Virus record (IMG/VR): IMGVR_UViG_2851955134_000005
DNA length: 46,544 nucleotides
Direction: 5' to 3' (one strand)
From: a virus
Lineage: Duplodnaviria; Heunggongvirae; Uroviricota; Caudoviricetes
Of this stretch, positions 3,021 through 9,033 are shown one piece after another (positions within the stretch are counted from its first letter, which is position 1; every line of letters begins with the position of its first letter). The notes beneath the pieces were generated by a model, which saw nothing but the letters and a program-made list of their open reading frames with translations, had not been told where the DNA came from and did not search any database. Both the position numbers and the translations under genes were made by a program.

Positions 3021-3194
3021 ATGGAAGATCAAAAAGCAACCAAGCCACAGGTTAAGTTCGACACAATGAAAGCATTCGCAGGTATGGGTGCTGCTGTTGA
3101 AGTTCTGATGAAGGCTGCTCCTAATGCGTTCACTCACGCTACTGTCTCTGGTAAAGAGCAGCAGGGTAAGCTTCGTCGTCGCAAAGCAGCATGA
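3021..3194 (+). CDS. small hypothetical protein (57 aa, below ORF-track cutoff)
   Basis: ATG at 3021 preceded by GGAG; translation MEDQKATKPQVKFDTMKAFAGMGAAVEVLMKAAPNAFTHATVSGKEQQGKLRRRKAA; terminator directly downstream. Confidence 0.3.
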   Translation: MEDQKATKPQVKFDTMKAFAGMGAAVEVLMKAAPNAFTHATVSGKEQQGKLRRRKAA

Positions 3195-7527: not shown

Positions 7528-7890
7528 TTAATGACCTGCTGCGCGGAGTTTTCCGTCAGGTTCACCGGCAAGAGTCAGTAATTGTCCCTGGTCTTCCTGC
7601 AGAATAGTCAGGCGACCACCGCGATTGACATACATCGGCGTTTCGGTGGTGTCTTCTTCAGAAATTTTCCCGCGGTTAGTCGGGCGAACATATGAGAGTT
7701 TGTGTTTGATTTTCACACGGTTCTCATCAAACGGTTCGATTTCCAGGTTGAGCGAGACCTTACCTTTGGTTTTCGTGTTCATCACACCGGAAGCGACTTC
7801 ACTGAGAACAGCGCCGATTTTGGTTTCAAATACACCGCCGTCCAGCTCCCCGATAAATGCCTGCACATCAGTACTGCGTTCGCTAGCCAT
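7528..7890 (-). CDS. YfdP-like phage protein (120 aa; start MASERS with GAGGAG RBS)
   Basis: Track ORF is N-terminally over-extended; internal Met with strong RBS gives 120 aa. Confidence 0.55.
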   Translation of the reverse strand: MASERSTDVQAFIGELDGGVFETKIGAVLSEVASGVMNTKTKGKVSLNLEIEPFDENRVKIKHKLSYVRPTNRGKISEEDTTETPMYVNRGGRLTILQEDQGQLLTLAGEPDGKLRAAGH

Positions 7891-8351
7891 TTTGCTGCTC
7901 CTCATCATATCGACCCTGCAAGGTCGGTTGGTTTCTCCACAAAACAGAGAAGAACACCTGCGGTGGCAGCCGCCCGGATGGATTGGGTTATGAGCCCGTC
8001 GTCCGGTGATGCTCTTCTCTGTTTTGTAAAAAGAGCGGTACCAGCCGGAAGCAAGTGTACAAACTGGTACCGCCAAAGCAGTGGCTGTTGTGGTGCCGGG
8101 TGCCTCCCGGTGCCTGGCGAAGGTTGCACACCAGGCGGGTGGGTATCCACAGAAGGTCGACTGTCAGCCTCAACCTTAACCCGCGTGCGCTGAGCCGCAT
8201 TCACCACAACGCTAAGGATTCTCTCTGGTTGAAAATACTTAGCTGTTATGTGCCTGCTTTTAGCCACATCAGGCGAGGTGGACCTGGTTATTCCCCAACA
8301 ACAAGGATTCGGTTAATCTTGATACCCCCAATAACATGGTGATTATTTAAG

Positions 8352-8855
8352 ATGGACAAATTTGATAGAAGTGCACAAAGGCAGTTGTTACAAATACTGT
8401 ATGATGCTCATCCTTATGAAATTTCTGATGATGCGTTGCAGTCTGTTCGTGACGCATTTGGAGATGATAATGTCCTAATTTCGAACTTAATTTATCTCGA
8501 AGAACATGGCTTGATTAAGAATGCTCTTGATTATTACTTGGATGGCATAAATATAAATATTCCTGAATTAAGAATTACTAAAGATGGAATTGATTTCATT
8601 CGTGATGATGGAGGTCTTAAAGCTATTCTTGGGATTATGACAATAAGATTGCATGATGAGACTCTCTGTGAACTTGAACGTATCATCAATAGTTCTACTT
8701 CTGCCACGACTGAAGATAAGAAGAAATTACTTTCTCAGCTTCGAACGCTTCCTGCCGACGCCATAAAACAGCTGACGATTCGATTACTTGGTCAGGGGCT
8801 TGACCATCTGCCGGACGTATTTCACGTAATTCAAAAAGCCCTCCATTCTCTGTAA
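8352..8855 (+). CDS. hypothetical 167-aa protein, AT-rich moron beside the immunity region
   Basis: Coherent helical-looking translation; low GC versus flanks; own terminator at 9034-9058; convergent with cI. Confidence 0.5.
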   Translation: MDKFDRSAQRQLLQILYDAHPYEISDDALQSVRDAFGDDNVLISNLIYLEEHGLIKNALDYYLDGININIPELRITKDGIDFIRDDGGLKAILGIMTIRLHDETLCELERIINSSTSATTEDKKKLLSQLRTLPADAIKQLTIRLLGQGLDHLPDVFHVIQKALHSL

Positions 8856-9033
8856 ATTCTGATTCTGGTCGGATTAGACAGAATCGTCCCCATCCGATCT
8901 GCTTACTAAGTAGAATCCAGAATTCGTCTTGTTGGTTGGTGCTGATAAAAAATCCATTAGGATGAACGTAAGCACAGAATATGACCATAGAACCCTCTTT
9001 TGTTACGGGGATACCAGGATTGTTAAAGAGCGA

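Follow-up and report, generated by a model that had tools for sequence, protein, structure and literature searches.

A divergent, unannotated STnc100/PasD-family RNA in the early-left leader of an SfV/ST64B-type prophage of Escherichia coli

The DNA analyzed here, called the window, is the whole 46,544-nt virus record IMGVR_UViG_2851955134_000005, a lambdoid prophage of E. coli of the SfV/ST64B type. An S24/helix-turn-helix repressor gene (9223-9849) is on the minus strand, while a Cro-like gene on the plus strand (9947-10147) is followed by a CII-like gene and the Q antiterminator (15107-15901). Operator-like repeats of the TCTAAC-TTAA-CTTAGT type occur in 3-4 copies at 9138-9195 and 9866-9945, and a leftward promoter-like sequence, TTGCCA-17-TAGATT, is found at 9169..9141. 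Since the operator-like repeats of the OR region recur over this site, OL/pL could be located there, and 9169..9141 on the minus strand is our best pL placement. The first early-left gene (7528..7890, minus strand), identified from the open reading frame (ORF) list and annotated homologues, encodes a 120-aa protein like YfdP, SfV orf32 and ST64B sb37; it lies outside the RNA and is given as context. We studied the interval between the two, 7891-8351, which a sequence-only reading had described as GC-rich, ORF-poor and structured and had placed on the path of leftward transcription; it indeed lies downstream of pL and upstream of the first early-left gene. On the minus strand this interval is the promoter-distal part of an untranslated early-left leader made of conserved RNA modules. 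Its core belongs to a divergent, unannotated subfamily of the STnc100/PasD RNAs in a new operon position, and an intrinsic terminator and a second conserved leader RNA (hairpin 2), for which no family has been described, follow it.

The core (8086..8210, minus strand) is a pseudoknotted multi-helix RNA that was recognized by Rfam model RF02076, by our own covariance model R1, by its minimum free energy (MFE) fold and by covariation. The Rfam covariance search proposed in the sequence-only reading gave nothing when the whole window was scanned at gathering thresholds (GA), but a permissive scan returned one meaningful match, STnc100 (RF02076), at 8228-8026 on the minus strand, which covered the full model with 36 bits (E=8e-6 over 1.5 kb, and E = 2.5e-4 over the whole window). 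The homologous loci of SfV, ST64B, sal3 and phiES15, together with the window, scored 35-41 bits on the minus strand over the full model length. Model R1, built without the window's subfamily, matched the window over its full length (model positions 1-117) with 65.1 bits (E=2e-14). The training copies for R1 were gathered using the window's own copy of a 20-mer, and those tested were STnc100 by Rfam at 51-104 bits. At 20-28 bits, R1 also recognized the cores of mEp460, WGPS2 and Kp4866-6, variants in which the shared 20-mer is missing. Copies with the window-type helix P2 fall at or below the Rfam threshold, with L022 at 47.8 bits and L021, L028 and L038 unreported at GA. The 20-mer, consisting of helix P4 and the 3' strand of helix P1, was invariant at >120 loci of a one-genome-per-species collection, almost all from Enterobacteriaceae, and was often present several times per locus. 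These loci share an architecture of, often, a sigma-70-like promoter, then GUGGUG-AAU, the P2 hairpin, a variable middle and CA-CCGGG-AGGCA-CCCGG-CACCAC.

All helices of the core are on the minus strand. P1 (8210-8202 with 8095-8087) is a perfect repeat found in the MFE fold and has the family's GUGGUG/CACCAC pairing with AAU. P4 (8110-8106 with 8100-8096, loop AGGCA, MFE fold) stands directly 5' of the P1 3' strand as CCGGG-AGGCA-CCCGG, so that 8110-8096 equals the family consensus. P2 (8198-8194 with 8188-8183, MFE fold) has five base pairs, one bulged base and a UNNGC loop as in the family, and reads GCGGC-UCAGC-GC(A)CGC in the window versus CCCCC-UNNGC-GG(N)GGG in the usual copies. It is thus a complete compensatory replacement, with the same geometry and every pair exchanged; across the family P2 is paired in 99.7% of cases. 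P5 pairs 8135-8129 with 8119-8113 in the MFE fold, and a pseudoknot derived in this analysis pairs 8177-8171, in the segment after P2, with 8126-8120, in the loop of the penultimate hairpin. In an alignment of 66 typical copies, 87.6% of cells were paired, as against 39-48% when the 3' partners were slid by 1-3 columns, and 18 of the 30 pairs had changes on both sides. For the pseudoknot, all five family pairs (5/5) change on both sides; its partners are AAGGUUG/CAACCUU in the window, AAGGCUG/CAGCCUU in phiES15 and AGCUGGC/GCCAGCU in L038. A duplex-energy test of own versus foreign pseudoknot partners gave a median rank of 0.31, many copies having the same pseudoknot sequence, and was replaced by column-wise pair counting. 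The sequence-only reading had stated that a lack of covarying pairs in homologues would speak against an RNA; since the pairs covary, this objection fails, and its option of a small RNA (sRNA) or cis-acting RNA is upheld in the form of a structured non-coding RNA.

Between the same two P1 strands, other versions of the core are found in mEp460, cdtI and the Stx phages, among them those of mEp460 and Stx2a_WGPS2 (L003 2696-2831 and L008 2696-2831). In these two the P2 loop (GCUGAU) is complementary to an enlarged P4 loop (AUCAGC). The complementarity suggests a loop-loop contact between P2 and P4 in mEp460-type variants; ordinary copies could form only 2-3 bp (UGC/GCA). We also considered a tRNA-like core, with P1 and P4 stacked as an acceptor-T minihelix and the P2/P4 loop complementarity of the mEp460 variant, and regard it as speculation only; P4 has no T-loop, and a CCA end is absent.

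Between the core and the terminator is a 13-nt single-stranded linker, AGCCACUGCUUUG (8074..8086, minus strand), defined by comparison with relatives. Most relatives have the conserved linker UGCUGUGUGUAGUCYUG, which is kept even where the terminator stems differ, while the shorter allele AGCCACUGCUUUG is shared by the window, mEp460, cdtI and WGPS2. The linker is a candidate seed or Hfq-contact segment, and AGCCACUGCUUUG and UGCUGUGUGUAGUCUUG are suggested queries for matches near E. coli start codons. The terminator (8026..8075, minus strand), supported by a perfect repeat and the fold, has the stem GCGGUACCAG / CUGGUACCGC (8073-8064 with 8044-8035), up to 13 bp, and the U-tract UCUUUUUAC (8034-8026, minus strand). 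It thus has the GC-rich stem and U-tract on the transcribed strand of an intrinsic terminator, lies within 30-100 nt of the core as in the family, folds with -21.2 kcal/mol and corresponds to the 3' hairpin of the Rfam alignment. With a loop longer than 8 nt, it escaped a standard terminator scan. Of 128 family copies that we scanned ourselves, 78 had a terminator no more than 200 nt away. The terminator stems of ST64B, Kp4866-6, phiNP, phiES15, L154 and L231 vary in sequence yet stay paired. A consensus scan found no promoter-like site between the terminator and the AUG at 7890. An antiterminator pairing of the P5 5' arm with the terminator 5' arm was dropped, as it is not conserved in ST64B.

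Hairpin 2 (7935..8033, minus strand) is a three-way junction supported by folding and by RNAalifold. Its stem A joins 8027-8003 with 7963-7939 (25 bp) on the minus strand, and pairing of the terminator U-tract with GGAGAAA lengthens it to ~32 bp. Branch 1 (~8006-7974, minus strand) has the nearly invariant sequence CACCGGRCGACGGGCUCAUWACCCAAUCCAYCCGGG, and branch 2 (~7973-7960, minus strand) is variable. RNAalifold applied to 20 diverse copies predicted 38 pairs, 9 of them with compensatory change. The structure is specific to the minus strand because its many G-U pairs would be mismatches on the other. The apex motif was found in >120 viral contigs, nearly all of which have the CCUUUUUAC tail before hairpin 2, and the permissive Rfam scan gave no family for it. 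At 25 to ~32 bp the stem is in the range of an RNase III substrate (uninterrupted, ~20 bp or more), and we infer cleavage of hairpin 2 by RNase III from the length of this stem only. A small variable hairpin (7928-7909), the Shine-Dalgarno sequence GAGGAG and the start codon of the first gene follow (7891..7928, minus strand; fold and scan). ST64B, Kp4866-6 and phiNP have equivalent small hairpins of different sequence before the start codon.

The composition and the repeats that had first been noticed were both confirmed. In 200-nt windows the GC content was 0.54-0.60 over 7800-8299 versus 0.38-0.49 to the left and 0.32-0.41 to the right, in line with the claim of a GC-rich segment. The 15-bp repeat (7939-7953 / 8013-8027) is real and grows to the 25-nt arms 7939-7963 / 8003-8027 of stem A with 84% complementarity; the 10-bp repeat (8035-8044 / 8064-8073), a perfect 10-mer, is real as well. 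A third repeat, the perfect 9-mer 8087-8095 / 8202-8210 that forms P1, had been overlooked. When the 461 nt were shuffled 2000 times with dinucleotide content preserved, inverted repeats of 15 bp (loop <=120 nt) arose only 11 times, so that the long repeat is unusual by itself, whereas those of 10 bp arose 283 times, and the short repeat gains meaning only through the T-tract and its conservation. The minus-strand folds of 8232-8020 (z = -2.67) and 8034-7891 (z = -5.49) were each more stable than all shuffles (0/200 as stable in both cases). The two repeats had been assigned to a single element with no strand given. The element consists instead of three minus-strand modules, with the 10-bp repeat as the terminator stem and the 15-bp repeat as part of a separate conserved structure of the 5' untranslated region. 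Overall, the observation was confirmed and its earlier interpretation was partly supported.

Upstream of the core, a conserved module (CACCUCGCCUGAUGUGGCUAAAAGCAGGCACAUAAC..., 8229..8282, minus strand) was found by sequence comparison in SfV and phiES15, further upstream in Kp4866-6, and in the Lelliottia locus L021. Conservation with SfV and mEp460_4F5 reaches no further 5' than this module: the similarity to these two and to SfII ends at query position 391 (window 8281). Typical family copies have TTGAC..-17-TAnnnT just upstream of P1, whereas in the window other conserved RNA modules fill that position. We also noted that the sequence which flanks the P1 5' strand recurs as a degenerate direct repeat (78% identity; 8293-8310 and 8204-8221), possibly left behind when family copies recombined. 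The loci of sal3, Kp4866-6, phiNP and Stx2a_WGPS2 have an extra module of ~130 nt upstream of the core (L004 ~2830-2950, L005 ~2830-2960, L007 and L008), with two hairpins that resemble tRNA T-arms (UCUGGUUCGAUUCCAGA; GUCCGUUCRAUUCGGAC). ARAGORN found no tRNA or tmRNA in the nine homologous loci, notwithstanding these hairpins.

The interval is 91-100% identical to SfV, SfIV, SfII, mEp460, cdtI and Stx2a/Stx2c phages and 74% identical to ST64B, while phages of Klebsiella, Cronobacter and Citrobacter match parts of it only. Its sequence is present in 2781 of 5426 complete E. coli genomes, and there was no RefSeq annotation beneath the best 20 matches listed from these genomes. Nine phages share the order repressor, pL region, leader modules, core, terminator, (hairpin 2) and first early-left gene. 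The pL leaders are untranslated and 700-1200 nt long. The first gene after the cassette varies by carrier and is YfdP-like, RdgC-like or, in phiES15, Kil, among others; phiES15 has the core and terminator, lacks hairpin 2 and has kil as its first gene. An accessory ('moron') gene (8352-8855), which we judged to be real, runs rightward on the plus strand between pL and the element. It is AT-rich (32-36% GC), converges on cI and must be crossed in antisense by pL transcription. Homologues of its 167-aa product, 29-47% identical, occur in phages of Edwardsiella, Pseudomonas, Acinetobacter, Klebsiella and Halomonas, and no Pfam domain was found in the protein.

In enterohaemorrhagic E. coli, STnc100 has been described as multi-copy prophage RNAs of ~160-210 nt, one of which was confirmed by Northern blot (PMC5331693). 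The STnc100 copy downstream of stx2B is overlapped by EcOnc27, an sRNA that binds Hfq (PMC12711010). PasD1 and PasD2 depend on Hfq (PMC8550237); they were reported to be structural relatives of STnc100, and their neighbours include Q, the nanS-p esterase gene and holin genes (bioRxiv 10.64898/2026.05.13.724894). PasD2 also features prominently in the RNA pairs bound by CsrA (bioRxiv 10.64898/2026.08.12.744399). In none of these accounts is a family member placed in an early-left leader. The window copy shares with this family the closing helix with AAU, the P2 helix with its UNNGC loop and bulge, the pseudoknot, P4 abutting the P1 3' strand, a linker followed by an intrinsic terminator, a total length of ~200 nt and carriage by lambdoid prophages. 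It differs in its sub-threshold score (36 vs 47 bits), its fully exchanged P2 helix, three hairpins inserted mid-core, the lack of an evident promoter of its own and the presence of hairpin 2 after the terminator. The family usually occupies the late region, after Q or stx and before nanS-p or holin genes, whereas the window copy is in the early-left leader.

Several side observations concern the wider family. In Kosakonia, Klebsiella, Enterobacter, Citrobacter and Raoultella (L018, L031, L035, L036, L042, L044, L050, L080, L085-L087, L094 and others), a porin-like gene of the KdgM/NanC family is preceded, at a distance of 95-200 nt, by an STnc100 copy that looks orthologous. The porin-like product has a signal peptide followed by AVTFDYRHE.ND.GGNNHKDRL, and only ~40 nt before its start codon three species of Klebsiella have a hairpin that ends in a U-rich tail. 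Tandem arrays of 2-3 STnc100 copies with a spacing of 220-270 nt were seen at L037, L041, L052, L078, L115 and L184, each copy with its own promoter-like sequence and terminator. The Hfq-binding RNA isrK was found by Rfam, above threshold, in the early-right region of ST64B (L001 5232-5308) and of phage cdtI (L009 5084-5160).

Early leaders of other lambdoid phages offer partial parallels. In lambda, the leader of N contains nutL and an RNase III-cleaved hairpin upstream of N, and terminators follow. The window shares with it a long untranslated early-left leader, a long double-stranded stem before the first gene and a probable dependence of early-left expression on terminator read-through, but has no boxB and no N, and its exact boxA lies elsewhere (9032-9020). 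A lambda-type nut site was not found in the window: there was no N-like Pfam match, which agrees with the sequence-only reading, and no boxB-like 15-nt hairpin; the sequence CGCUCUUUUUAC after the terminator is unconserved in homologues. The lambda 6S RNA (pR'-tR') and StxS of Stx phages are terminated leader transcripts that double as sRNAs. The window RNA would likewise be a short RNA that results when transcription, lacking antitermination, ends at the start of a phage operon; 6S and StxS, however, belong to pR' and the late operon, and the window RNA to the early-left operon, ~1 kb from its promoter. With putL and putR of HK022 the window element has in common that it is a cis-encoded, structured early-leader RNA, upstream of terminators, of a lambdoid phage without recognizable N. 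The put RNAs are ~70 nt long, have two stems and lie beside pL, whereas the core in the window is ~920 nt beyond pL and belongs to a family that terminates at its own terminator. When 7891-8351 was compared by eye with putL and putR, which were located in HK022 via the published numbering (PMC9378689), no similarity was seen.

A separate conserved RNA, CGAACAGGCAGGACGCCCACGAAGUAGCCGCCUGGGGCAUAUGAAGUCCAGGAUGAUUCG, is located directly downstream of pL (9125-9060, minus strand) and is also present in ST64B, Kp4866-6 and phiNP (L001 ~3105-3165, L005 ~3885, L007 ~3267). It has a CCUGG/CCAGG stem with compensatory changes across phages and shares with HK022 putL/putR the motif CGAAC(N)GGC ... AGGAUGA at similar spacing, but its predicted pairing differs. 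These features make it a candidate antiterminator for N-less phages, not a demonstrated put homologue. The pL transcript also contains an exact boxA consensus, CGCUCUUUAACAA (9020-9032, minus strand), just after a bidirectional-looking hairpin of the accessory gene. It is not conserved in the homologous leaders examined, and no boxB or N was found. A relaxed boxA pattern occurs four times in the window, the only exact occurrence being the one at 9032-9020; as the relaxed pattern is not conserved in homologous leaders either, the exact boxA is given as a side observation only.

We consider it probable that the terminator acts as an attenuator or insulator, that the terminated RNA is sRNA-like and that the early-left genes need read-through. 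Transcription arriving from the right would first make the pseudoknotted STnc100/PasD domain, then the linker and then the strong intrinsic terminator. A polymerase with no resistance to termination would halt at ~8030, and the RNA would be released; its 3' part, comprising the core, the linker and a hairpin with a U-tail, resembles the Hfq-bound, trans-acting STnc100/PasD sRNAs. During lytic growth, a polymerase modified near pL would pass the terminator into the early-left genes. In the read-through RNA the terminator U-tract would join the 25-32-bp stem of hairpin 2, and RNase III may then cut this stem and separate the sRNA part from the mRNA. Such a cut would fix where the mRNA begins and thereby how the first gene is translated. 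Sequence comparison and predicted folding establish, within this scheme, the family identity, the fold, the terminator, hairpin 2, the conserved position and the lack of a promoter-like site downstream.

Several points weigh against this scheme. The RF02076 score of 36 bits is below the gathering score of 47, and part of the 65 bits obtained with R1 is built in because its training set was collected with the window-derived 20-mer. No sigma-70 promoter was found directly upstream of P1, where the best sites matched 7-8 of 12 consensus positions, consensus scanning being a weak method; because this copy, unlike typical members, has no convincing promoter of its own (best 8/12), a discrete sRNA with a defined 5' end is not assured. 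A stable ~200-nt Hfq-bound RNA has been demonstrated for other family copies only (PMC5331693, PMC8550237, PMC12711010). A target search with the linker within the window found the linker itself only, near-matches being no better than expected by chance. For suppression of the terminator, the pL-proximal RNA is a candidate only, and the pairing inferred for it differs from that of put.

Other functions for the core have to be set against the attenuator and sRNA scheme. The put-like processive antitermination RNA raised by the sequence-only reading would act in cis and stay on its polymerase through the following and later terminators. The lack of a recognized N-like protein, the place of the element before a terminator at the head of a long operon, the family members heading late (holin) operons and other genes, and a boxA-like UGCUCUUU directly 5' of P1 in several relatives would fit such a function. 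We hold it to be decidedly unlikely, since the core has no likeness to putL/putR, lies ~900 nt from pL, whereas putL abuts pL (PMC9378689), and leaves the put position to the separate RNA at 9125-9060; moreover, the RNAs of roughly 200 nt that accumulate from typical members have their 3' ends at the member's own terminator (PMC5331693; PMC8550237 for the PasD relatives), so termination there takes place in spite of the core. Alternatively, the core could be a sensor (a riboswitch, or a site for a protein or tRNA-like factor) and the 'sRNA' the terminated form of a regulated attenuator. Its complex pseudoknotted fold with invariant loop nucleotides is consistent with this, as are the many copies that run promoter, core, hairpin or terminator and ORF with scant space for a second promoter, the copies upstream of KdgM/NanC-like porin genes (Klebsiella, Kosakonia, Enterobacter) and of a small lipoprotein gene, and the L021, L022 and L028 copies that directly precede an ORF with no terminator. 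The core and terminator have no conserved alternative (antiterminator) pairing, however, and stand 29-196 nt apart, the downstream genes are functionally heterogeneous, and relatives are reported as trans-acting, Hfq-bound sRNAs, all of which makes a sensor quite unlikely. A core with no trans role, whose structure shields the untranslated leader from Rho loading or nucleases while the terminator insulates toxic early genes, is in our estimate rather unlikely. It would suit the length of the untranslated pL leaders, the GC-rich and structured nature of the whole stretch and a window copy with no promoter of its own, but protection from Rho would not need invariant loops, a covarying pseudoknot and a linker conserved across genera. 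A broader proposal, which we regard as unlikely, is that the STnc100 core is a pseudoknotted domain, widespread in Enterobacteriaceae, which acts as a sensor or binds a protein and, from the 5' end of transcripts, controls read-through or the fate of the mRNA downstream, that the catalogued 'sRNAs' are terminated forms of a new attenuator class, and that hairpin 2 is a second regulatory RNA specific to early-left operons. If it were true, one sensor domain would govern phage early-left and lysis operons as well as KdgM/NanC-type porin and lipoprotein genes.

Explanations that deny the interval an RNA function fit the data poorly. The description of the interval as ORF-poor calls for a qualification: both strands contain open frames of 70-135 codons, although none is kept in frame across homologues, and in phiES15 only one frame, of 61 codons, is open. 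A decayed protein-coding gene, for example an N-like one, could be sought in the 120-codon minus-strand ORF at 7905-8267, which is open, basic and Pro/Arg-rich. This ORF has no Pfam match, all six frames on the two strands have similar alignment scores across homologues, the indels are not multiples of three and the substitutions are compensatory for RNA pairing, which leaves a decayed gene barely credible. The remnant of a mobile element that it had also suggested gained no support. A mobile or repetitive remnant, or a mere recombination junction, would be in keeping with the mosaic breakpoints at the P1 3' strand (8095/8103), 8281 and 8335, with the degenerate duplicate of the P1 5' flank at 8310-8293 and with a family that is multi-copy and sometimes tandem. 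Yet there are no terminal repeats, target duplications or transposase, the position and orientation relative to the operon are fixed and the selection pattern is that of an RNA structure, and we find this origin highly improbable.

These results bear on RNAs that are abundant in the prophages of pathogenic E. coli and Salmonella, STnc100 and PasD. A divergent subfamily of these RNAs heads the early-left operon, has no RefSeq annotation beneath the best 20 matches listed and escapes the Rfam gathering threshold. Because the family core contains a covarying pseudoknot and also occurs as the 5' leader of ordinary genes, a cis-regulatory role is possible. Hairpin 2, present in >100 phage contigs, belongs to no described family. 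Together, the modules provide a concrete model of how the early-left genes may be gated in N-less SfV/ST64B-type phages, including some Stx2 phages.

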